64,000 nucleotides of DNA from Candidatus Gastranaerophilales bacterium (GTDB taxonomy: Bacteria; Cyanobacteriota; Vampirovibrionia; Gastranaerophilales; Gastranaerophilaceae), in assembly GCA_947624325.1 (NCBI GenBank), contig CANQJT010000006.1, positions 34,147 through 98,146 of the forward strand, given 5' to 3'. The notes beneath the pieces were generated by a model. The model made no database searches and was not told where the DNA came from. It was given only the letters and a program-made list of their open reading frames with translations. How positions within the stretch are numbered: position 1 is the first letter of the stretch; each line of letters starts with the position of its first letter. Below are positions 1,531-54,641 of this stretch, one piece after another. Both the position numbers and the translations under genes were made by a program.

Positions 1531-2400
1531 ATGAATATTTTAATCCCCGAAGAATTAGCAATAAAAAAGCCTAAAAGTGAACTTTTAAAAATCATAAACA
1601 ATAAAAAGTTTAATGACCGTGTGCTTTTTGAAGTAAATTCCGATTTTCATAACATTAAAGTCGTTGAAAATGAAATTGGGCGGTTTTTGCACTATAAAGA
1701 CACTTATCAGGCAGGGTTTATTGATACGGAGTTTTACAAAGGCAATCTGCCTTATATTAATTACTTTTTAATTTCATACCTGTTAAACCCGAAAACCGAA
1801 AAAATTCTGGTAATAGGTATGGGTTCAGGTAAGCTTATTAATGATATAGAGTTTCTTTTTGACAATTTAAAAACCATTGATGTCGTTGATTTAGAAGAAA
1901 ATATTGCCGATATTGCCGTAAATTATTTTGATTTTAAGCCGTCTGATAAATTTAATTTTATATTGCAAGACGGGATAACCTATCTTCTTAACTGCCATAA
2001 AAAGTACGATTTAATTATAGTTGATGTCGCAAATAATGACGGCATTGATTTAAGATTTTTAAGTGAAGATTATTTTTCAGCCGTAAAAAAATGTTTGAAA
2101 AAAAGCGGAATATTTGTTTCAAATATGTGTGCAAGCCCCGATTTTGAAAATCCTAAAAACTTATTTTTCAAAAAATATTTCCCGATATATAAAAGATTTT
2201 TCAATAATAATATGGTTTTTAAAGGCAATTATTCCGATGAAGTTTACTATAAAGCATTTTTTAATATAGATGAGAGAGTTATCGATATTACAAATGTAAT
2301 AATCTTTTCATCGGATGATAAATTAAAGTTAAACAAATCAAACATAGAAAAATTCAAAAGTTTAAATATTGATATTTCATTATATTTGAGCCCGGTTTGA
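1531..2400 (+). CDS. spermidine synthase-like SAM-dependent transferase-fold protein
   Basis: ILVIGMGSGKL glycine-rich loop, DVVDLEE acidic strand end and DLIIVDV motif, in the order seen in spermidine-synthase-like proteins. The last 7 codons and the stop lie in repeat sequence. Confidence 0.55.
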   Translation: MNILIPEELAIKKPKSELLKIINNKKFNDRVLFEVNSDFHNIKVVENEIGRFLHYKDTYQAGFIDTEFYKGNLPYINYFLISYLLNPKTEKILVIGMGSGKLINDIEFLFDNLKTIDVVDLEENIADIAVNYFDFKPSDKFNFILQDGITYLLNCHKKYDLIIVDVANNDGIDLRFLSEDYFSAVKKCLKKSGIFVSNMCASPDFENPKNLFFKKYFPIYKRFFNNNMVFKGNYSDEVYYKAFFNIDERVIDITNVIIFSSDDKLKLNKSNIEKFKSLNIDISLYLSPV

Positions 2401-2660
2401 GGCATAGGGTGCATAGCACCTTCAAAGTTTGGACTAACTTATTATATTTGAACCCAACTTGGGGCATAGCCCCTTCAAAGTTTTAACTAAGTTTTTATAT
2501 TTGAGCCCAATTTTAAATCGGCTCTGCCGACGCACAACCCCCTGCAACCTCGCTTTAAAAACCTTCGGTTTTTCCGCTCGGTCGGTGGGGCATAGCCCCT
2601 TCAAAGCTTGGTCTAACTTATTATATTCAAGCCCAATTTTAAACCCGCTCTGCGGGCGCA
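2377..2660. repeat. hairpin-linker repeat array, locus A (4 hairpin-linker units plus a tail module)
   Basis: Hairpins GGTGC-ATA-GCACC (2408-2420), GGGGC-ATA-GCCCC (2461-2473), CGGC-TCT-GCCG (2519-2529), GGGGC-ATA-GCCCC (2587-2599) and CCCGC-TCT-GCGGG (2644-2656), separated by conserved linkers of the form TTCAAAGNTTGGTCTAACTTATTATATTTGAGCCCAA. Confidence 0.85.
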
Positions 2661-12805: not shown

Positions 12806-13066
12806 ATGTCCGAAAATATTATTAAAAAACCATTTGGATTAAATGTAGCTATCCCCCAAAAGACAGTACAAGAAATCCAAAAAATAGCTAAACAAGAACT
12901 GGAAGAAATTACAGTTAATCCTTTTATAAATTATTTTGAGGAAAACGATAAAGTATTTTCGGGTAAAGTTGCTGACGAAATTGATAAATACCGAGCTCAA
13001 ATGTATTCGGTAAACCAATTAATGAATAAACATCAACCTCGGTCAACATTTAATATTAACATATAG
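12806..13066 (+). CDS. hypothetical small protein
   Basis: 86 aa ORF with GAGG 6 nt upstream of the ATG and its own terminator. No recognisable motif. Confidence 0.45.
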   Translation: MSENIIKKPFGLNVAIPQKTVQEIQKIAKQELEEITVNPFINYFEENDKVFSGKVADEIDKYRAQMYSVNQLMNKHQPRSTFNINI

Positions 13067-13088
13067 ATTAACCAAATTAACTTAAGCA

Positions 13089-13112
13089 TTCCGATAACAT
13101 TATCGGAATTTT
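13089..13112 (+). terminator. terminator of the 12806..13066 ORF
   Basis: TTCCGATAA-CA-TTATCGGAA palindrome followed by TTTT. Confidence 0.6.
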
Positions 13113-13480
13113 GGTGCAGTGCACCTTCAAACTTGGTCTAACTTATTATATTTGAGCCAAACTTGAGGCAAAGCCTCTTTAAAATTAGACTATTCTATTT
13201 ATATTTGAACTCAACTTTAAACCGGCTATGCCGGGGTGCAGCGGCACCTTTATAGTTGGTCTAACTTATTATATTTGAGCCAAACTTGAGGCAAAGCCTC
13301 TTTAAAACTAGACTATACTATTTATATTTGAACTCAACTTTAAACCGGCTATGCCGGGGTGCAGCGGCACCTTTATAGTTAGTCTAACTTATTATATTTG
13401 AGCCAAACTTGAGGCAAAGCCTCTTTAAAACTAGACTATACTATTTATATTTGAACTCAACTTTAAACCGGCTATGCCGG
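13113..13480. repeat. hairpin-linker repeat array, locus B: three tandem 122-123 nt units
   Basis: Units at 13113-13234, 13235-13357 and 13358-13480. Units 2 and 3 differ at one base. Each is GGTGC..GCACC + linker + GAGGC-AAA-GCCTC + linker + CCGGC-TAT-GCCGG. Confidence 0.95.
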
Positions 13481-13542
13481 TCAGGTTGTTGCTCACTCGG
13501 GCTCGTTCGCTATCGCTCAACTCCGCCCTGCGCAAAAACCAT
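13481..13542. repeat. tail module of repeat locus B
   Basis: GTTGTTGCTCACTCGGGCTCGTTCGCTATCGCTC is homologous to 54249-54274 and to the reverse complement of 17509-17530. Confidence 0.7.
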
Positions 13543-13566
13543 AAAAAAAAGGTCGCATCAGCGACC
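13543..13566 (-). terminator. Rho-independent terminator-like hairpin (minus-strand sense) abutting repeat locus B
   Basis: The minus strand reads GGTCGC-TGAT-GCGACC followed by T8. It is the second terminator downstream of rplT. Confidence 0.55.
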
Positions 13567-13691
13567 ACAGTCTTGTTATGGAGAAAAGGAGTGAAGGAAA
13601 ATAAGTAATAAAGAAATTGACTATATTATATTAATTCCCAAAATAAAGTATATATAACATATATACTTTTTATATATTAATATATCTTTAC

Positions 13692-13718
13692 AAAAAAAGA
13701 ACCGTCCAAAACGGTTCT
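13692..13718 (-). terminator. infC-rpmI-rplT operon terminator
   Basis: The minus strand reads GAACCGT-TTTGG-ACGGTTC followed by T7, 25 nt after the rplT stop. Confidence 0.75.
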
Positions 13719-13743
13719 TAATCTTAGTTTTAATACTTTTAAA

Positions 13744-14094
13744 CTATTTAGAAGATTTTGCTGTATCAACAATTATAGAAAATGCATCCGGCTCGTTTAC
13801 AGCTAAATCTGCTAGCATTTTTCTGTTAATTGAAACATTTGATGTTTTTAACGCATTTATAAATCTTGAATAGCTTATACCATGTTGTCTTACTGCTGCA
13901 TTAATTCTTACAATCCACAAACGACGCATATTTCTTTTTAAATGACGTCTGTCTCTGTATTGATATTTAAGTTTTTTCATTACTGCAGTATTAGCAACTT
14001 TAAATATTCTGCTTCTTGCACCTTTAAAACTCTTTGCTAACTTTAATATTTTCTTATGTCTTTTTCTAAGGACATTTCCACGTTTTATTCTCAT
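13744..14094 (-). CDS. rplT: 50S ribosomal protein L20
   Basis: [28 protein letters not shown]...[11 protein letters not shown] is the L20 signature. Confidence 0.95.
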
Positions 14095-15927: not shown

Positions 15928-16130
15928 AATAACCTCATATTCTTTTACATTCGTATAGTAATTGTATATATACAGTATATAAAAATTTTTTTAGTAAAAA
16001 ATTGCTTAAAAAAATATCTAAATTAATTTATTATGGAAATAAATAGGATTTAATTGTTAACAAAAGTTAACAATTAAAAAATTTACAAAAAAAAGTATTG
16101 ATTATAATTATTTTTTATATAAAATAATTA

Positions 16131-16360
16131 AGAAGCCGTAGAAAGCCGGGAAGCCAGAGGGGCAAAAAACCAAGGGGCCAAAAGAAGGACCAAAAGAAGG
16201 GTAAATGCGAAGGGGCAAATGCAACTGAGGTGAAAGTGACTGAGGCGAAAGCGAACGAGCCAAGTGTAAATGAGGCAAAAGCAAGTAAGCACCCCACCCC
16301 CTTGAGATAATACAAGTAAGCCAAAATCAAAAAAGCTTTTAAAAAACCACCCGACCGAGG
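16131..16360 (+). repeat. purine-rich GC island related to the hairpin-repeat family (locus E), upstream of rplJ
   Basis: About 230 nt of GAAGG/GCGAAAGCG-type purine runs. It shares GCGAACGAGCC (16254-16264) and CACCCGACCGAGG (16348-16360) with loci A-D. Confidence 0.6.
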
Positions 16361-17437: not shown

Positions 17438-17570
17438 CGCCCGCAGAGCGGGTTTCAAGTTGGGCTCAAATATAATAAGTTAGAGTAACTTTAAAGCTGC
17501 CACTACAGCCGAGCCCGAGGGAGCAGCAACCCGACCGAGCGCAAAAAACCAAGATCCGCAGAGCGGAGTT
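17438..17570. repeat. hairpin-linker repeat, locus C (reverse orientation), between rplL stop and its terminator
   Basis: CCCGC-AGA-GCGGG (17440-17452) + TTTCAAGTTGGGCTCAAATATAATAAGTTAGAG + degenerate hairpin GCTG-CCACTA-CAGC + GAGCCCGAGGGAGCAGCAACCCGACCGAGCGC + TCCGC-AGA-GCGGA (17555-17567). Confidence 0.85.
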
Positions 17571-17583
17571 ATTGTTTGAAAAA

Positions 17584-17610
17584 AGAGATTGCAAATGCAA
17601 TCTCTTTTTT
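17584..17610 (+). terminator. rplJL terminator
   Basis: AGAGATTGCA-AA-TGCAATCTCT followed by T6. Confidence 0.8.
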
Positions 17611-17725
17611 ATTACCGTTAAGACCTAGTCCTTTAAATATTTTCTAATTATTCTTTTAAGTAATATTCAAAATCGTTCCGTTATTTAATACTTAATTCGG
17701 TACTAAGTTATAACGGAGAAGAAAC

Positions 17726-28889: not shown

Positions 28890-30419
28890 TTAATTAATTG
28901 TATGAATTAAAAATATTTCATCAAATTTTTTTTCATTATATTTAATTTTTTTTGAATTCAATATATTTTCAATTTCTTCTATATCACTGCATCTAAAGTA
29001 TGTTTCATTATTTCTTGAATATATCCAAAAATTTATATTTATATTTTCATCGATGAATTTAGCAGAAACTTTACTTGTTTCTTTAAAATCTATATTGCCA
29101 TATGAACGAATATCAATGGGATTAGTATATTTAAAATATTTTTTATAATATTTTACGGCATATAAAAGCCCCTCACAGGCTAATATTTTTTCACCGTCCT
29201 TATAATTTTTTAAAAGTTCATGCGAACATTCTTTTACTTTTTCTCTCAACTCTTTACTTCTTGACCTGTCATACTGCAGTTTATAATCGACCATAGCATT
29301 AAAAGGTATATTATAAAACGGAATTTTTACTCCTAAAATAAAAATCATTAATATAGTTAGAATTACATTAGTTATAAAATTTATACCTTTAATTTTAGTT
29401 TTTATCGGAGAAATATCAAAATTCTTAGCTAACAGCATTATATAAATCGGAATAAAATATAGCATTAATCTTCCGGTAAACGGGTATATTTTCAATACGG
29501 AAGCACTAAATGCAAAGACATAGATTAAACTTACCAAAATTGCTTTTTCTTTGTTATCTTTATATAAAATTCCGCATCCTAAAACCAATAAACCTATTAA
29601 AAATATAACATTTTTAAAATTAAAGTCATAAATAAAATACATACAATTATTTTGCAGATAATAATATAAGAAATTATTATAAAAAACTATACAGCCGTTT
29701 TGGTCAAAATCACACCAGAAATTCCGCATAAAATGAAATACTTGTAAATCATAAAAACATAAAGCTAACCCTGATAAAATAACACCTGATAATATAATTA
29801 ATGCCTTAGGATTTAACTTCCTTCCCGATATCATTTTAGTTATTACTATTGCCGGTATTATGAACATAGATGGAAATGAAAATAATACAAGAATAATTGA
29901 TGCTATAGTGTAAATCAATGTCTTTTTTATGGAAATATTACTTATATCCAACCATTTATATAAAATCAAAAGCATTATACAAATAACTACATCGGAAGAA
30001 TATTGTTTAAATTCGGCGCTGTAATATACAAGACCGATACTAACGGAAAATATAAACATACCGGCAATTATACCGATTTTATTTTTAATAACATCTTTTA
30101 AAAGAATATAAAATAAAAATAATGAAGATATTCCGGATACAACAGGTAATAATCTAAAAGAATATTCATTAAACCCAAACAATTTAACTATCACAAACGT
30201 TCCCAAAAGAAATAAAGGAGGGGATTTTTGGTTTGCTTCCAACGGTAAAAACATTCCCCAAATATCTCTATCTATAAAGGATAAACTAAGCATTATTTCA
30301 TCAAGCCAAAATGGCAATTTTGCAAAGTATAATTTAAACCTTAAATAAATTCCTATTAAAATAATTAAGGTGATAATTATAAAATAAACTAAATTAATTA
30401 TCTTTTTTTTATTATTCAT
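28890..30419 (-). CDS. GT-C-fold-like membrane glycosyltransferase (ArnT/PMT-like), paralog 1
   Basis: 509 aa with about 11 TM segments, PFWLDEIMLSLSFIDRD (DE motif in the first loop), AEFKQYSSD and a C-terminal soluble domain. Clearly paralogous to 30435..31940 and 33797..35324. Confidence 0.5.
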   Translation of the reverse strand: MNNKKKIINLVYFIIITLIILIGIYLRFKLYFAKLPFWLDEIMLSLSFIDRDIWGMFLPLEANQKSPPLFLLGTFVIVKLFGFNEYSFRLLPVVSGISSLFLFYILLKDVIKNKIGIIAGMFIFSVSIGLVYYSAEFKQYSSDVVICIMLLILYKWLDISNISIKKTLIYTIASIILVLFSFPSMFIIPAIVITKMISGRKLNPKALIILSGVILSGLALCFYDLQVFHFMRNFWCDFDQNGCIVFYNNFLYYYLQNNCMYFIYDFNFKNVIFLIGLLVLGCGILYKDNKEKAILVSLIYVFAFSASVLKIYPFTGRLMLYFIPIYIMLLAKNFDISPIKTKIKGINFITNVILTILMIFILGVKIPFYNIPFNAMVDYKLQYDRSRSKELREKVKECSHELLKNYKDGEKILACEGLLYAVKYYKKYFKYTNPIDIRSYGNIDFKETSKVSAKFIDENININFWIYSRNNETYFRCSDIEEIENILNSKKIKYNEKKFDEIFLIHTIN

Positions 30420-30434
30420 TTAGTTTCCTTTTAA

Positions 30435-31940
30435 TTAATCTAATGTATAAATCAGATACATTCCCTCAAAAAAGTTAATTTTATAATCTTTTTTAAGATT
30501 TTCAATTATATAATCACTATCGCTGTCTCTGAAATAACATTCGTAATCTCTGCCCCAGAACCATAATTTATAAAAATCCTCATTCTTTTTAATAAACTTC
30601 TTTGAGGTTTTATTAACTTTAACAGTCCAATCTTTATCATATTCACTAAATGCAATATTTTTTTTATAATTATAATATTTTTTATAATATTTTGTATAAA
30701 ATATAAATTCTTCAGAAGCTAAAATTTTATCTTCAAGTTTAAAATTATCAAGTACAAAAAGAGTATATTCTTTTGCTTTGGATCTGCTTTCCAAAGAACG
30801 AACTCTATCAGTAGGTTTTCTGAAATCAATCATACTTTCGTAAGACACAGTTAAAAACGGAATATTTACTTTTAAAATCGAAAATATAATTATTAATAAA
30901 AATATTCTATATATAAATTTATATTTAGGTAATAAATCACTTAAATCAAATAATTTAACAATCATTATTATAGATACCGGTAAAAAATATAGTGCTAATC
31001 GTTCTGAAAAAGGATATATTTTTAATAAAGAAAAAATTAAAGATAAACAAATTAAAATTATTAATTGAAAAAATCTGTATTTGTTCTCTTTTAGAACCAA
31101 TAAAAAACCGATAATTATTATGGGAGTTATTTGAAAAATAAAATAATGGTGATAATTATACAACAGGTATTTTATTGTTACTAAAAACATTTGAATAAAA
31201 GATTTTTCGCTAAACCAATATTCTTTCATAAAATGACAAACGTTCACATCAAAGAAATATAACCAGAGTCCGGAAAATATAACTCCGCCCAAAATAAAGA
31301 AAGTTTTATTTGTAATTTTCTTTTCTTCAATATATTTGGCAAGAACAATTGAAACTATTATAAACATTGAAGGAAACGATAAAAACACAAATACAACGGA
31401 TAGCAGTGTATACAATATTATTTTTAAATTTGAAATATTTTTAAAACTGATAAATCGATAACTGTATATTAATAAAATAGAAATCAGAACATCAGTTGAA
31501 TAAGGTTTAAATTCCGCACAATAAAAAATAAGAGGGATAGAAAATGCATAAAGAAAAATACCAAAAACTGCACCGATTTTATCCTTAACAAATTCTTTTA
31601 ATAAAAAATAAAATCCAAACATAGACAAAATTCCGGATATGTATGGAACAAATCTAAAAGCATATTCATTAAACCCGAATATTTTAACACTTATAAAAAC
31701 AAGGCATAAAAATAACGGCGGAGCTTTTTGATTTGCCTCTAACGGGAAAAACATTCCCCCAATATCCCTATCTATAAAAGATAAACTCAGCATCATTTCG
31801 TCTAACCAAAAAGGCGCTTTATATAAATTTAATCGTGTTCTGAAATAAATACCCAAAATAAAAATTACTGTAATTACAGTGAAAAAAAGTATATTTCCAA
31901 AATTCTTATTCTTACTAATTTTACAAATATTATTAAACAT
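30435..31940 (-). CDS. GT-C-fold-like membrane glycosyltransferase, paralog 2
   Basis: 501 aa with PFWLDEMMLSLSFIDRD, ANQKAPPLF and AEFKPYSTD. Aligns with paralog 1 along its length. Confidence 0.5.
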   Translation of the reverse strand: MFNNICKISKNKNFGNILFFTVITVIFILGIYFRTRLNLYKAPFWLDEMMLSLSFIDRDIGGMFFPLEANQKAPPLFLCLVFISVKIFGFNEYAFRFVPYISGILSMFGFYFLLKEFVKDKIGAVFGIFLYAFSIPLIFYCAEFKPYSTDVLISILLIYSYRFISFKNISNLKIILYTLLSVVFVFLSFPSMFIIVSIVLAKYIEEKKITNKTFFILGGVIFSGLWLYFFDVNVCHFMKEYWFSEKSFIQMFLVTIKYLLYNYHHYFIFQITPIIIIGFLLVLKENKYRFFQLIILICLSLIFSLLKIYPFSERLALYFLPVSIIMIVKLFDLSDLLPKYKFIYRIFLLIIIFSILKVNIPFLTVSYESMIDFRKPTDRVRSLESRSKAKEYTLFVLDNFKLEDKILASEEFIFYTKYYKKYYNYKKNIAFSEYDKDWTVKVNKTSKKFIKKNEDFYKLWFWGRDYECYFRDSDSDYIIENLKKDYKINFFEGMYLIYTLD

Positions 31941-32031
31941 ACTTATATTATATTATAAGCATATTTAAAATTGAAAAATTTTAGTAATTTTAAACTTTTG
32001 ACATTAAAATATTAAGCAAGATAATAATAAT

Positions 32032-33804
32032 ATGAACAAAATAATAATATCTCAAATTAACACTATCGCAGGGGACATATCATTTAATAAAGAAAAGATT
32101 CTTGAATGCATAAAAAAGGCAAAGAATCAAAAAGCCGATTTAATAATTTTTCCCGAGCTTGCTTTAATAGGATATCCGTTCGGCGATATATTTATAAGGC
32201 ATAAATCAATTATTGAAAGAGAACTGAAAGCTTTAAATGATATTGCCAAAAATACCGAAAACATTACAGCTCTGGTTGGTTTTGCGGAGCCTACAAAAGA
32301 TGCCAACAAGAAACCTTTTTATAATTCTGTTGCAGTAATACAAAACGGAAAAATTATTGATACGGTAAGAAAAAGATTACTGCCAAACTATTCGGAATTT
32401 AATGACTACAGATATTTTGAGCCCTCTGACAAAGTATCAAAAATTTTGGAATTAAACGGTGAAAAATTTGGGATTTTGGTTTGTGAAGATAGTTTTAATG
32501 ATAAATCATTTTTTAAAGATAAATGTATATATAAAATTGATCCTGTTAAAGAATTAATGGAACAAAAGCCTCAAACATTAATAAATTGTTCATGTTCCCC
32601 CTCAAGATGCGGTAAAGAATATATTAAAAACGGATTATTTTCATCTATCGCAAAAAAATACAAAGTAAATTATATATATGTAAATCAAGCAGGATATGCG
32701 GATAATCTTTGTTTTGACGGAGCATCAAGAATATATAATACAAATGGTGAATTAACATTAAGAGCAAAATCTTTTGAAGAAGATTTTGTAATAACAGACA
32801 ATTTCCAAGGAGAAATAAATCCGCTGCCGGAAGGCTCGGATAAAAAATTTGAATTGATTGATTTGAAATCTGATTATGAAAAGGATTTAGACAGGACATA
32901 TAAAAGTATAATTTTCGGTATCAGAGAATATTTTAGAAAGAACGGATTTAAAAAAGCGGTTTTAGGTCTGTCGGGAGGGCTGGATTCTTCTATCTGTGCA
33001 GTACTTCTTTCTGATGCACTCGGCAAAGAAAATGTATGGGGAATATCTATGCCAAGCAGAATAACCTCTAAAGAAAGCAAAAATGATGCAAAACTATTAG
33101 CGGAAAATCTCGGAATAAACTTTTTTGAAATTCCTTTAGCTGATGCTATTGACCCTTTAAAATCAATGTTAAATACTGCTTTTACAAATATAGAAACCGA
33201 AAAGTTTGAAAAATCAACAACAATAGAGAACTTACAGGCACGATTAAGAGCGACTCTTTTATGGAGTATATCAAATGAGCATAAACAAATGCTCCCTATT
33301 GCAACAAGTGATAAATCAGAGGCTTATATAGGTTATGCCACGGTTAACGGAGATATGTCAGGCGGATTTGCACCTATTGCGGATGTAACTAAAACAAAAC
33401 TATTTGCTCTCGGAGATTTTTTAAATAAAAATCGAGCACACAAAAATGCAATTCCGCAGGCAATTTTAGAAAAGCCTCCGGGAGCTGAATTAAAAATTAA
33501 TCCTAAAACAGGTAAAACAGTTTGTGCCGAAGAAGAAAACATGCCTTATGAATTCTTGGACGAAATTATTTGGAATGTTGAAACAAAAGGTTATGGTTTT
33601 GACGAATTAATAAAGCATGAATTTTATTATGAAAAAAATAATAATCTTTCAATTGAACAAAAAAAAGAATGGATTAATAAATTTTATTGGAAATCCAAGT
33701 GTGCTGTCTACAAATGGCATATTATTCCGCCATCGGTTGTTGTTGATGTAAAATCAATTAACTCTGTCGAATACCGCCAGCCGATTATTTCAAAAGTTAA
33801 TTAA
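32032..33804 (+). CDS. nadE: glutamine-dependent NAD+ synthetase
   Basis: N-terminal CN-hydrolase domain (FPELALIGYP...VCED) and C-terminal NAD synthetase domain (LGLSGGLDSS). Confidence 0.9.
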   Translation: MNKIIISQINTIAGDISFNKEKILECIKKAKNQKADLIIFPELALIGYPFGDIFIRHKSIIERELKALNDIAKNTENITALVGFAEPTKDANKKPFYNSVAVIQNGKIIDTVRKRLLPNYSEFNDYRYFEPSDKVSKILELNGEKFGILVCEDSFNDKSFFKDKCIYKIDPVKELMEQKPQTLINCSCSPSRCGKEYIKNGLFSSIAKKYKVNYIYVNQAGYADNLCFDGASRIYNTNGELTLRAKSFEEDFVITDNFQGEINPLPEGSDKKFELIDLKSDYEKDLDRTYKSIIFGIREYFRKNGFKKAVLGLSGGLDSSICAVLLSDALGKENVWGISMPSRITSKESKNDAKLLAENLGINFFEIPLADAIDPLKSMLNTAFTNIETEKFEKSTTIENLQARLRATLLWSISNEHKQMLPIATSDKSEAYIGYATVNGDMSGGFAPIADVTKTKLFALGDFLNKNRAHKNAIPQAILEKPPGAELKINPKTGKTVCAEEENMPYEFLDEIIWNVETKGYGFDELIKHEFYYEKNNNLSIEQKKEWINKFYWKSKCAVYKWHIIPPSVVVDVKSINSVEYRQPIISKVN

Positions 33805-35324
33805 TACTATTTAATTGCAAAGCATAATATAAGCCATAATGAAATTCTTTAAATGTAATATTTTTCTCTTTTAATTTTTGTTTAAAAAAATCTTTTGCAT
33901 ATATTTTTTCTTTATCATCATAGCTGTTTTCAAATGTTATCCAATATTTATAATTTAATGATTGGTTATTAAAAAAATCCGTAAAACTCTTTTCCCATTG
34001 TTCTTTGGAATTAATGTAAATTTCAACTTCCCAATCCACAGTTTTATTAAATTTGTACATTTTTTTATAAAAATTAAATGAATCATAATATATATAGTTA
34101 AATAAAAATTTATCATTATCAGAACAGTTATTAAAAATATCAACGGTTACATTTTTAATATTATTTCTTTCGTCAACAGACATATTTATAATTTTATAAT
34201 AATTGAATTTTTCATCAAATTTTATTTCAAAAATACAAAATAAAATTATAAAAAGTAAAAAGACTTTAAGTACATTAAAAATTATCAAAGGTATTTTTTT
34301 TATAAATACAGGATTATCAGCAGATTTAATAATAAACATTATAAATAAAGGAATTAAATATAATATTATTCTTCCTGTTAAAGGATATATTTTCAAATAT
34401 GAAGCAGCTGATATAACAGCTATAAGAATTATATAAAATATTGTATTTCTTTTTTCAATAATTAAATATAATAATCCTAATAAAATTAACAAAAATGTTA
34501 ATTTAATATAATAAGGCTGTAATACCCCCCCCCGGTTGTATCACAAATAAATAAAAATCTTTAAACGTTGCATATAAAGAAGTTGCCGATGGTTTAATAA
34601 AACCGGTTTGCCAATCATTTTCCAATATTTCTGTTACTCTTAAATCTTTATATACTAAATATAGATATAGACTTGAAGTGAAACTTCCTAAAAATATCAT
34701 TACACCCGGAAATGTTATTTTCTTTTCTTCAATAAATTTTGCAATCATCATAGAAGGAATTATTAATATTGAAGGAAATGAAAATAATATAATTATATTT
34801 GAAATTATCAGATATACTATTACCTTAGCCCATATTGATTTAAATGGCTGTATATTTTTTAAACTCATATATTTATAACTAAATAGTAATAATATACAAA
34901 TTAAAACATCCGAAGAATAAGGTTTAAATTCTGCAGAATAATAAATGAGTACAGGATTAACAGCAAATAAAAATAAACCTGTTAATAAAACCAACTTACT
35001 TTTTATATAATCATTTAATAAAAAATAAAAAGCAAATAATGATAGAATTCCGGATAATAAAGGAATTAATCTTAAACTATATTCATTATAGCCGAAGATT
35101 TTTTGCACTATTAAAACTAATGAACAAAACAAAGGCGGAGCTTTTTGATTATCAACTAAGACATGAAAAAAATTTAAAAATTTTTCATCAATAAAACTTT
35201 GACTTAAAACTATTTCATCTATCCAAAAGGGTATTTTAAATAAATATATTTTAAGTCTTAAAAAAATTCCAAGAACTACAATAAGAATAACAAATATATA
35301 AAAAATAATATTAAATTTTTTCAT
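33797..35324 (-). pseudogene. GT-C-like paralog 3, split into ORFs 34503..35324 and 33797..34492 by a frameshift at a G9 tract
   Basis: The N-terminal half carries PFWIDEIVLSQSFIDEK...AEFKPYSSD and the C-terminal half LKIYPLTGRIILYLIPLF, matching paralogs 1 and 2. Removing one G from the tract fuses both halves into about 508 aa with no stop. Confidence 0.8.
34525..34533 (-). repeat. homopolymer C9 (G9 on the coding strand)
   Basis: Counted directly: aataCCCCCCCCCggttg. Confidence 0.95.
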
Positions 35325-54182: not shown

Positions 54183-54240
54183 AATTTCTCCTTTTGTTTA
54201 TGTTTTTACTTTGATTGTTTTTGTTTTTTGGTTTCCGCTT

Positions 54241-54641
54241 GGATACGGGTTTGTTGCTCCCTCGGGCTCGTTCGGGTGCAGCGGCACCTTTAAAATTTGG
54301 TCTAACTTATTTATATTCGAGCCAAACTTTAAACCGGCTCTGCCGGCGCCCTACGGAAAATCAGCCTTGAAATTGCTTTTCGCTCGCTGCTGTCGTTGGC
54401 TTCGCTCCGTTGTCACCAACTTCGCTGTCCTGATTATTCGTCCTGCTCGCCCCTTCATTCCGCTTCGGAATTTCATTCCTGTCGCTCCATCGGGACTTCG
54501 CTTTGTTACGGGTTTCGCTTCGCTTCACCCTAGCGAAAATCGTCTTGAAATTGTTTCCCGCTCAAGCCTGTCGTTCGTTCGCCTTTGGCTGTCCTCACTT
54601 CGGCTTTCGCTACCCGGATTATCATCCGTCCGCAATTTCGC
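54241..54641. repeat. hairpin-repeat unit plus about 290 nt of GC-rich degenerate repeats (locus D) between rpmJ and rpsM
   Basis: GTTTGTTGCTCCCTCGGGCTCGTTC + GGTGC-AGCG-GCACC (54275-54288) + linker + CCGGC-TCT-GCCGG (54334-54346) + CGCC. Two degenerate units follow, each opening with CCCTA(C/G)(G/C)GAAAATC..CTTGAAATTG (54349 and 54528), pyrimidine-rich on the + strand. Confidence 0.85.

Follow-up and report, generated by a model that had tools for sequence, protein, structure and literature searches.

Mosaic hairpin repeats and a tandem array of ~123-nt units in the intergenic DNA of Candidatus Gastranaerophilales

Introduction

Gastranaerophilales, non-photosynthetic relatives of cyanobacteria, have not been cultured and are represented solely by metagenome bins; they are placed in Candidatus Melainabacteria within the Cyanobacteriota/Melainabacteria group. 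A 64,000-nt stretch of one such genome (contig CANQJT010000006.1), referred to below as the window, contains at positions 13113-13480 a tandem array of ~123-nt units in which short GC-rich hairpins alternate with AT-rich linkers. The initial annotation, made from the sequence alone, described the array as part of a dispersed, covarying repeat family with a layout resembling repetitive extragenic palindromes (REPs) and bacterial interspersed mosaic elements (BIMEs). What kind of element is this array, and how did it come to occupy its site? Our analysis favors, with a probability of roughly 60%, local amplification within one cluster of a lineage-restricted, non-coding and modular repeat family of the REP/BIME- or BOX-like kind. 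The family itself is a new form within the known type of interspersed mosaic hairpin repeats and not a member of the REPs.

Results

Tandem Repeats Finder (TRF) singled out one strong array in the window, with a period of 123, 3.0 copies, 96% matches and no indels at 13113-13480, in agreement with the three head-to-tail units proposed at the outset, and direct comparison gave unit lengths of 122, 123 and 123 nt (13113-13234, 13235-13357 and 13358-13480). As had been stated, units 2 and 3 differ at a single base (G at 13258, A where unit 3 corresponds); units 1 and 2 are separated by six substitutions and one 1-nt indel. Reading of the sequence located the three hairpins H1, H2 and H3 previously assigned to every unit (Table 1), H1 being GGTGC-AGCG-GCACC in units 2 and 3. 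Because the window contains only ~30% G+C, these hairpins form GC islands. The array linker is itself an imperfect palindrome, and the 123-nt unit is a dimer: the first basic unit lacks H3, and the second is complete, with H2 in the role of the H1-type hairpin. An alternative 5-bp hairpin, TGCCG...CGGCA, is possible across the H3/H1 junctions at 13229-13246 and 13352-13369, so that neighboring hairpins of the array could compete for pairing.

The array was also recovered in independent assemblies from other samples, which encode an identical 86-aa protein upstream of it, and thus it is not an artifact of a single assembly. Short-read contigs frequently break or end within the array, which makes the exact copy number in any one assembly insecure; a search of other assemblies by way of rplT likewise yielded just contigs terminating at the repeat. 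No open reading frame (ORF) of ≥50 aa spans the array and stops occur in every frame of both strands, excluding a coding repeat (123 nt equal 41 codons) and bearing out the earlier view that the array is not a decaying coding remnant; one 61-aa ORF begins in the last unit and runs out of the array. A CRISPR array was rejected as well, since the whole 123-nt period repeats and no unique spacers are present.

The conserved core of the linker, the 21-mer CTAACTTATTATATTTGAGCC, had seven matches with ≤3 mismatches in the window against 0.01 expected. A hidden Markov model (HMM) built from seven window copies found 45 units in the window and ten related loci (loci are numbered with the prefix L). 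The window accounts for 11 basic units in four clusters, and an unfiltered covariance model returned the same set and nothing further; the copies suspected elsewhere in the window are therefore real, at 2377-2660 (+), 17438-17575 (−) and 54230-54350 (+). With strain variants added to the window and the ten related loci, the count reached 75 unit hits (55 distinct) in 174 kb from seven genomes, confirming a dispersed repeat family. A permissively scored self-BLAST of the window yielded so many AT-rich matches of low complexity that its results were not used.

The basic unit measures 62-72 nt and consists of H1, TTYAWAR, an AT-rich imperfect palindrome, (T/G)AAA and usually H3. In the H1-type hairpin a loop of 3-4 nt is closed by a 5-bp GC stem (GGTGC, GGGGC, GAGGC, GCTGC, GGTCGT or GGGGT and the respective complement), the palindrome (~36 nt) has the halves AAGTTTGGaCTAACTTAT and TATATTTGAGCCCAACTT with the conserved core, and H3 follows the pattern CCSGC-TNT-GCSGG with a 5-bp stem, often with CGC directly after it. 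The GC hairpins of the unit are 13-14 nt long, and every stem variant listed by the initial annotation was present. Alongside the units there are pyrimidine-rich GC modules, 25-110 nt in length (such as CTTGAAATTCCTTTTCGCTCAAGCCTGTCGTTCGTTCG and GGTTGTTGCTCCCTCGGGCTCGTTCG), which are themselves dispersed in the same orientation; pooled on the unit-forward strand, they contain 30% C, 37% T, 21% G and 12% A. The first part of the module abutting the array recurs at 54251-54274 (24-nt match, 95.8%) and, reversed, at 17510-17535, and the GC modules of the mosaic between rpmJ and rpsM recur in L003-L009. Blocks thus stand at many intergenic sites with varying order and number, the BIME-like mosaic layout that had been suggested.

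An exact-pattern scan of one genome per prokaryotic species placed the core pattern at 10 loci, all in metagenome-assembled genomes (MAGs) of Candidatus Gastranaerophilales. These loci belong to six species-level bins with MAG names of the form Lapin-xxx, which suggest a rabbit-gut host origin. The pattern had no match in JGI metagenome contigs or in viral contigs, and the array with its adjoining module had no BLAST match in plasmids or phages. We retrieved 80 metagenomic loci around relatives of ribosomal protein S8 and scanned the 43 closest of these spc-operon loci with the covariance model, which found no unit in them (best E = 0.21); L023 and L029, with S8 90-92% identical, carry pyrimidine-rich modules only. 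The hairpin unit is therefore restricted to a narrow clade, and the GC modules extend slightly further. Database comparisons upheld the statement that the sequence belongs to no named family: Rfam at gathering threshold found only tRNA-His in the whole window, and at E up to 10 over 12900-13750 it found nothing within 13113-13480 and two weak matches (E 1.2 and 9.1) touching the adjacent module. A full-text literature search with the core sequence and for Melainabacteria/Gastranaerophilales repeats returned nothing relevant, and no previous account of any repeat family in Gastranaerophilales was found.

In an alignment of 25 complete units, 98.4% of H1 cells were paired, with both-side changes at two positions (GC/AU/CG and UA/GC), and 96.8% of H3 cells were paired, with a middle pair that is GC in 13 units, CG in 11 and unpaired in one, and an outermost pair with one change, from CG to UA. 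The columns with both-side changes were 4-15, 5-14 and 65-73. The covariation score of 0.212 compared with 0.099 in column shuffles (0/500 reached 0.212) and with ≤0.079 when the partners were slid, which substantiated the reported covariation of the stem arms. Stem variation is concentrated at two or three compensated positions. In the AT-rich palindrome 79.6% of cells were paired and covariation was almost nil. The accompanying claim that the linkers stay conserved needs refinement: by column average, linkers do not exceed stem arms in conservation (majority frequency 0.82 versus 0.88). Orthologous linkers at single-copy positions other than that after rplL are 93-100% identical.

About six stem types for H1 and three for H3 underlie this signal, and hence the independent covariation events are few. 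Several stem variants are site-specific and common to orthologues, such as GCTGC/GCAGC after rplL in three species and, at one position, TCGGC/GCCGA in the window versus CCGGC/GCCGG in L006, indicating that at least some of the compensation occurred in place. Broken or hybrid stems are also present (GGTGC..GCGGC, GGTGC..GTACC and CCGGC..GCGGG). The loop of one module hairpin is reverse-complemented between genomes, AAAAAC-CTTCG-GTTTTT in the window (2556-2578) and AAAC-GAAG-GTTTT in L006 (~4205 and ~4420) and L010 (~3880); this is the footprint expected of a template-switch mutation at a hairpin. Paired change had been taken as the mark of a selected hairpin. The covariation stands, but template switching at hairpins can yield paired change in one step.

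As DNA (z = −3.72) as well as RNA of both strands (z = −3.35 and −2.50), a single 123-nt unit folds better than shuffled sequences. Between the two orientations of the 25 units, RNA folding energies were nearly equal (−19.3 versus −19.7 kcal/mol, p = 0.44), and therefore the structure of the unit points to no functional strand.

Of 19 clusters, 13 lie between co-directional genes, five between converging genes and one in a divergent region, so that they occupy, as REPs do, extragenic positions between unidirectional or converging genes near 3′ ends, and two of them abut or contain a stop codon. The cluster at 17438-17575 begins one base past the rplL stop codon, and that at 2377-2660 runs into the 3′ end of a spermidine-synthase-like ORF (1531-2400), the TGA of which (2398-2400) is within the repeat. 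The stop codon of the window ORF falls at the junction of a linker and a half hairpin, unlike that of the orthologous ORF of L006 (2953-3828), which also ends in a repeat cluster, at a TAA in an H1 loop. Because the ORF ends inside a cluster in both species, its C-terminal residues are repeat-encoded. The mosaic at 54230-54641 fills the 460-nt rpmJ-rpsM spacer of a ribosomal-protein operon with genes on the minus strand, and in related loci clusters fill the rplX-rplE, rpsN-rpsH and rplF-rplR spacers. The array at 13113-13480 lies between converging terminators, with the plus-strand site of the 86-aa ORF on one side and the minus-strand sites on the other. Between the two minus-strand terminator-like sites lies an AT-rich stretch of ~130 nt (13567-13696) that may represent a small minus-strand transcription unit; it contains, at 13649-13689, a 22-nt TA-rich tandem repeat.

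All 13 clusters located between co-directional genes, representing five independent sites, are antisense to these genes; thus the transcript is purine-rich and the pyrimidine-rich strand of the modules is the template. Since rplJL of the window is on the plus strand and the alpha operon on the minus strand, this orientation rule follows transcription rather than one replication direction. In the rpmJ-rpsM spacer, folding superior to that of shuffled sequences is confined to the transcribed strand (z = −2.49; opposite strand, z = +0.51). CsrA-type GGA motifs on the purine-rich transcribed strand were judged not enriched by a rough base-composition estimate.

Two explanations that assign the unit a function in DNA or as a gene were considered in the light of this context. 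In E. coli BIME-1/RIP elements, two hairpin-forming palindromes flank a conserved segment that is bound by a nucleoid protein or gyrase. By analogy, the units might be DNA sites for a nucleoid protein of the IHF/HU class or for gyrase and manage supercoiling. An AT-rich imperfect palindrome conserved in sequence and not by covariation would suit a dimeric protein, the unit folds well as single-stranded DNA (z = −3.72), and clusters are placed both between convergent gene pairs (2377, 13113) and within ribosomal-protein operons of high expression. However, the IHF consensus (WATCAANNNNTTR) was not seen in the unit by eye, no tool scan having been made, and DNA binding alone requires no fixed orientation relative to transcription, which leaves this explanation quite unlikely.

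Alternatively, each unit could be a gene for a small RNA, complete with promoter and terminator, and multiplied in tandem like the NsiR1 array of Nostoc. The head-to-tail 60-70-nt repeats, the GC hairpin followed by a T-rich stretch and an exact TATAAT hexamer on the core's reverse strand all fit such a gene. Yet promoter-like sites in the region numbered 7 compared with 4.9 ± 2.2 in shuffles, with no −35 element at the right spacing, and a promoter in each unit was rejected because this count is not above background. The only hit of a terminator scan of the array was the alternative 5-bp stem that spans the H3/H1 junction and has CCTTTATAGT after it; the T stretches after H1 and H3 are interrupted. 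Five-bp stems would make weak terminators, Rfam offered no match, and units inside operons would place a promoter-terminator pair where it disrupts transcription. We regard the small RNA gene as very unlikely.

Comparison of orthologous sites revealed strong conservation of some copies. The copy after rplL differs from the window at 1/138 positions in L009 and at 7/138 in L002, which corresponds to 0.7-5% divergence versus 14-30% at third codon positions of the neighboring genes; the non-repeat spacer adjoining this copy is 7-11% diverged. For the rpmJ-rpsM mosaic, a whole-block comparison gave 5.2% versus 26.9% at third positions, a figure that is biased because whole-block, class-wise divergence favors BLAST-alignable regions and includes paralogous alignment in arrays, and we therefore relied on single-copy sites. 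These data bear on the possibility that the stems change in pairs without any selection, with template switching or intrastrand repair keeping the hairpins perfect in a family of neutral junk. The reverse-complemented module loop (CTTCG versus GAAG), the hybrid and half hairpins and the neutral decay of some copies would be expected from such a process. It fails to explain why the non-palindromic parts of the rplL copy are as conserved as its hairpins, and the stems have stayed GC-rich, in a genome of ~30% GC, in species 14-30% diverged at third positions; this makes wholly neutral upkeep highly improbable.

Strains and species differ by the gain and loss of entire blocks. Among strains with the identical 86-aa protein, L013 has three 123-nt units in the array and L014 two; L019 has three units with a different 5′ junction, L021 at least three, and L022 a single H1-palindrome-H3 unit followed by other modules. 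The orthologous array locus of L009 has four basic units. The L006 orthologue of the 2377-2660 cluster differs in unit count, L009 has an extra 108-nt module at the rplL stop that the window lacks, and the position of the unit among the modules differs between the window and L003. The rplX-rplE spacer contains a module and a unit, both AT-decayed, in L007, a module only in L001 and L004, and a unit only in L005 and L008, with CTTTGG direct repeats at the deletion edges. The rplF-rplR spacer measures 51 nt in L001, 208 nt in L005 and 398 nt in L008, and the extra L008 blocks carry hybrid H3 arms. More distant relatives have rpsN-rpsH spacers of 18-71 nt and rplF-rplR spacers of 11-78 nt, compared with 200-450 nt in the repeat clade. 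Block breakpoints fall at hairpins or short direct repeats, and half hairpins keep the 5′ arm and the loop in all cases (GAGGCATAG and GGGGCATAA).

This turnover has to be set against the proposal that the units and modules are primarily cis-acting RNA elements of the host, which punctuate operons or 3′ ends and are repeated because the signal is needed widely; they would protect upstream segments from exonucleases, provide processing sites or serve as weak or regulated terminators. A comparable mode of action has been proposed for REPs in other bacteria (PMC3733652). The fixed antisense orientation at all co-directional sites, the clusters placed directly at stop codons, one of them supplied by the repeat, the strand-specific folding of the rpmJ-rpsM spacer (z = −2.49 versus +0.51) and the copies conserved far better than synonymous sites all speak for this proposal. 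On the other hand, little transcription is expected of an array between converging terminators, the two orientations fold equally (p = 0.44) with no G-U signature of a functional strand, one site ranges from 1 to 6 basic units among strains with unchanged neighboring genes, other copies decay neutrally, and more distant relatives manage with 11-80-nt spacers. A primary role as host RNA signals is accordingly rather unlikely.

Finally, we tested the membership of the family in known classes. Under the REP definition of Di Nocera et al. (PMC3733652), one end of the palindrome carries a GTAG or CGTC tag that stays unpaired. None of 51 distinct units had GTAG, CTAC, CGTC or GACG ≤8 nt 5′ of H1; only seven tag sequences were scattered 3′ of the unit, and the GTAG found in five units is inside H1. 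The inverted pairing of REP, BIME and REPIN elements was likewise absent, multi-unit clusters being uniformly oriented (++++, ++++++, ---), and the single opposite-strand unit match is the palindrome matching itself. Compared with the 20-40-bp REP palindrome, the 13-14-nt GC hairpins are too short and the ~36-nt AT-rich center is only 79.6% paired. Since the tag and the inverted dimers, two testable features, both fail, the family resembles REP/BIME but is not REP: the likeness in mosaic layout noted by the initial annotation is genuine, and calling the family REP would be wrong. A miniature inverted-repeat transposable element was also rejected, because the unit ends (GGTGC... and ...GCCGG) are not mutually inverted and filled and empty sites reveal no duplicated flank. 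Membership in the mycobacterial interspersed repetitive units (MIRUs) is excluded by the stops in all frames and the lack of an ORF of ≥50 aa crossing the array.

The coordinates of the repeat blocks and of the adjacent terminator-like sites are collected in Table 1. Several further features were noted in the window and the related loci. A GC-rich island at 16130-16350, purine-rich on the plus strand (AAGCCGGGAAGCCAGAGGGGCAAAAAACCAAGGGGCC...), lies upstream of rplJ, at a distance of ~130-350 nt, and has a conserved counterpart in L009. Its strand asymmetry is like that of the GC modules, and its BLAST match is at the orthologous site only, so that membership in the family is unproven; no Rfam L10-leader match was reported for it. 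Three paralogous membrane-protein genes at 28890-35324 (28890-30419, 30435-31940 and 33797-35324, the last split into two ORFs), with weak PMT_2 glycosyltransferase matches, are the source of the long direct repeats listed as D1/D3/D5 by the repeat scan. A conserved leader, GCTTTTCTATACTG..GATAAATTT.AATAAGTAGTAAAAAG, precedes the S8 gene rpsH; it was noted in L001, L005, L007, L008, L023, L024 and L029, with L026, L031, L038, L041 and L050 as further loci, and a longer conserved leader, GTCGGACTGCTAAAGAACGCTTTT...AGTAAGCGACGAGTAG, is found where rpsH has no preceding rpsN. The leader upstream of rpsH may be an S8 autoregulatory RNA. A conserved hairpin just before the start of L18 (rplR; CACCCAAACCTTCTT..loop..AAGGGTTYAT..GGC) occurs in L001, L005, L008, L023, L024, L025 and L030, across Gastranaerophilales-like loci and independently of the repeats.

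Table 1 Repeat blocks and neighboring terminator-like sites in the window
Feature	Position	Strand	Description
Tandem array	13113..13480	+	six basic units, H1-palindrome (no H3) alternating with H2-palindrome-H3; found by TRF, nhmmer and covariance model
H1, unit 1	13113-13125		GGTGC-AGT-GCACC
H2	13165-13177		GAGGC-AAA-GCCTC
H3	13222-13234		CCGGC-TAT-GCCGG
GC module abutting the array	13481..13545	+	TCAGGTTGTTGCTCACTCGGGCTCGTTCG...CCCTGCGCAAAAACC
Terminator-like hairpin and T-run of the 86-aa ORF	13089..13112	+	TTCCGATAA-CA-TTATCGGAA TTTT; directly before the array, outside the family
Terminator-like site beyond the array	13551..13566	−	GGTCGCTGATGCGACC plus T8; outside the family
Second minus-strand terminator-like site	13697-13719	−	directly after rplT
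Repeat cluster	2377..2660	+	partial unit, two units, GC module, one unit
Degenerate partial unit	2377-2407	+	ends in half hairpin GAGGCATAG
Units of the first cluster	2408-2460, 2461-2530	+	
GC module of the first cluster	2531-2586	+	
Last unit of the first cluster	2587-2660	+	hairpin end 2656, then the CGC tail common after H3
Repeat cluster	17438..17575	−	single unit, GC modules and H3-like hairpin
Unit in the 17438..17575 cluster	17440-17511	−	H1 variant GCTGT/GCAGC
H3-like hairpin in the 17438..17575 cluster	17555-17567		TCCGC-TCT-GCGGA
Conventional terminator after the 17438..17575 cluster	about 17585-17612		
rpmJ-rpsM repeat mosaic	54230..54641	+	full unit 54273-54346 flanked by pyrimidine-rich GC modules

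Discussion

Local amplification within one cluster of a mosaic repeat family is the account of the array that we prefer. Because ancestral spacers were short and the same blocks occur at many unrelated sites, the sequences spread as insertions before the six species diverged. The first spread between sites may have been that of non-autonomous mobile DNA, driven by a trans-acting activity that recognizes the hairpins; analogy to the REP/RAYT and IS200/IS605 systems would make a single-strand HUH/Y1 enzyme the leading candidate for this activity. Today, most evolution of the blocks would take place at hairpins and short direct repeats, by unequal recombination, slippage during replication, gene conversion and template switching. 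These processes would account for the 123-nt tandem repeat, the copy-number polymorphism and the hybrid and half hairpins, and pairing of the hairpins would be maintained for the mobilizing activity or for a function in the host.

Some copies, such as that after rplL, appear to be under purifying selection and have probably been exapted, perhaps to mark transcript ends or to space operons. That the orientation is fixed and some copies are strongly conserved indicates that transcripts or transcription see the elements and that some of them have acquired a role. This role may be that of an RNA 3′-end or operon-spacer element or of a protein-binding site as in BIME-1.

Several observations weigh against this account. 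No candidate for the mobilizing enzyme was found: Pfam identified no transposase, integrase or HUH protein among 40 window ORFs, as the earlier remark on the absence of a RAYT or other transposase from the window had implied, and inspection by eye of the L001-L010 ORFs, most of them for ribosomal proteins, made neither a transposase nor a HUH protein evident. The cluster edges have no terminal inverted repeats, target-site duplication or conserved target motif. Most units match the same site in other species better than other sites in their own genome, indicating that nearly all copies seen predate the species splits (the exception is a 97.8% identity between two sites of bin58), and every recent change that we saw is explicable by recombination alone. 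The orientation rule comprises five independent sites, all in ribosomal-protein contexts (two-sided p about 0.06). Finally, the first rpsN-rpsH unit diverges at the third-position rate and has lost its pairing or the whole hairpin in 3/4 species, and the L007 rplX-rplE copy has decayed to AT. Since some copies evolve neutrally or have decayed to AT, constraint is not general, and the family mixes constrained and unconstrained copies.

In another reading, the units and pyrimidine-rich modules would be an orientation-locked colonizer of operon spacers, of a kind not known before. It would be either a mobile element that joins in hairpin loops or a clade-specific operon punctuation that is read on the transcript, in the latter case by an RNA-binding or processing factor. 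The half hairpins that keep the 5′ arm and loop, the hybrid arms and the head-to-tail arrays, as rolling-circle/HUH-type nicking gives, are consistent with the loop-joining version. We consider this reading, in its two versions together, unlikely.

Whatever their origin, the repeats explain why short-read Gastranaerophilales assemblies break at these sites, and the variable copy number of the array offers a strain-typing marker. The family is a compact natural case of hairpins staying paired in an AT-rich genome, and its filled, empty, decayed and conserved copies, found side by side, make selection, gene conversion and template switching separable. New clade-specific repeat families are to be expected in uncultured lineages; here, however, the set of copies is unusually clean, and the orientation rule demands an explanation. 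If a partner enzyme were found, REP/RAYT-type biology would reach a new phylum, and a role at the RNA level, if found, would represent a new way of spacing ribosomal-protein operons.

The BIMEs of enterobacteria, especially BIME-1/RIP, are among the known systems most like the present family. Both are extragenic mosaics in which a few kinds of palindromic unit combine with conserved motifs that are not palindromic, both are located after genes, between converging genes and inside operons with block numbers that vary by site, both can abut or supply stop codons, and in both two hairpins flank a conserved middle segment. Unlike BIMEs, the Gastranaerophilales units have no GTAG/CGTC tag and are all in direct rather than alternating or inverted orientation, their GC hairpins are only 13-14 nt long, their long palindrome is AT-rich, no RAYT was seen, and they occur in a different phylum and have no sequence similarity to any described family. 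REPIN/RAYT systems of Pseudomonas and other bacteria share the short hairpin repeats, the stems that stay paired across copies and the confinement to narrow clades; REPINs are thought to be non-autonomous and mobilized in trans by a single-copy enzyme. A REPIN, however, consists of two inverted REPs in one long hairpin, whereas here two short hairpins flank an AT palindrome and the units are arranged head to tail. The BOX elements of Streptococcus pneumoniae (boxA-boxB(n)-boxC) are likewise modular and intergenic, with a variable tandem module, a predicted stable structure and no transposase of their own; compared by description only, they differ in their fixed A-B-C order, the order of blocks being free here, and share no sequence modules with the present family. 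The mycobacterial MIRUs resemble it in being 40-100-nt direct tandem repeats of intergenic operon spacers, oriented in a fixed way relative to operon transcription and variable in copy number among strains, but they carry small ORFs overlapping neighboring stop and start codons, whereas the units described here are hairpin-based with stops in all frames.

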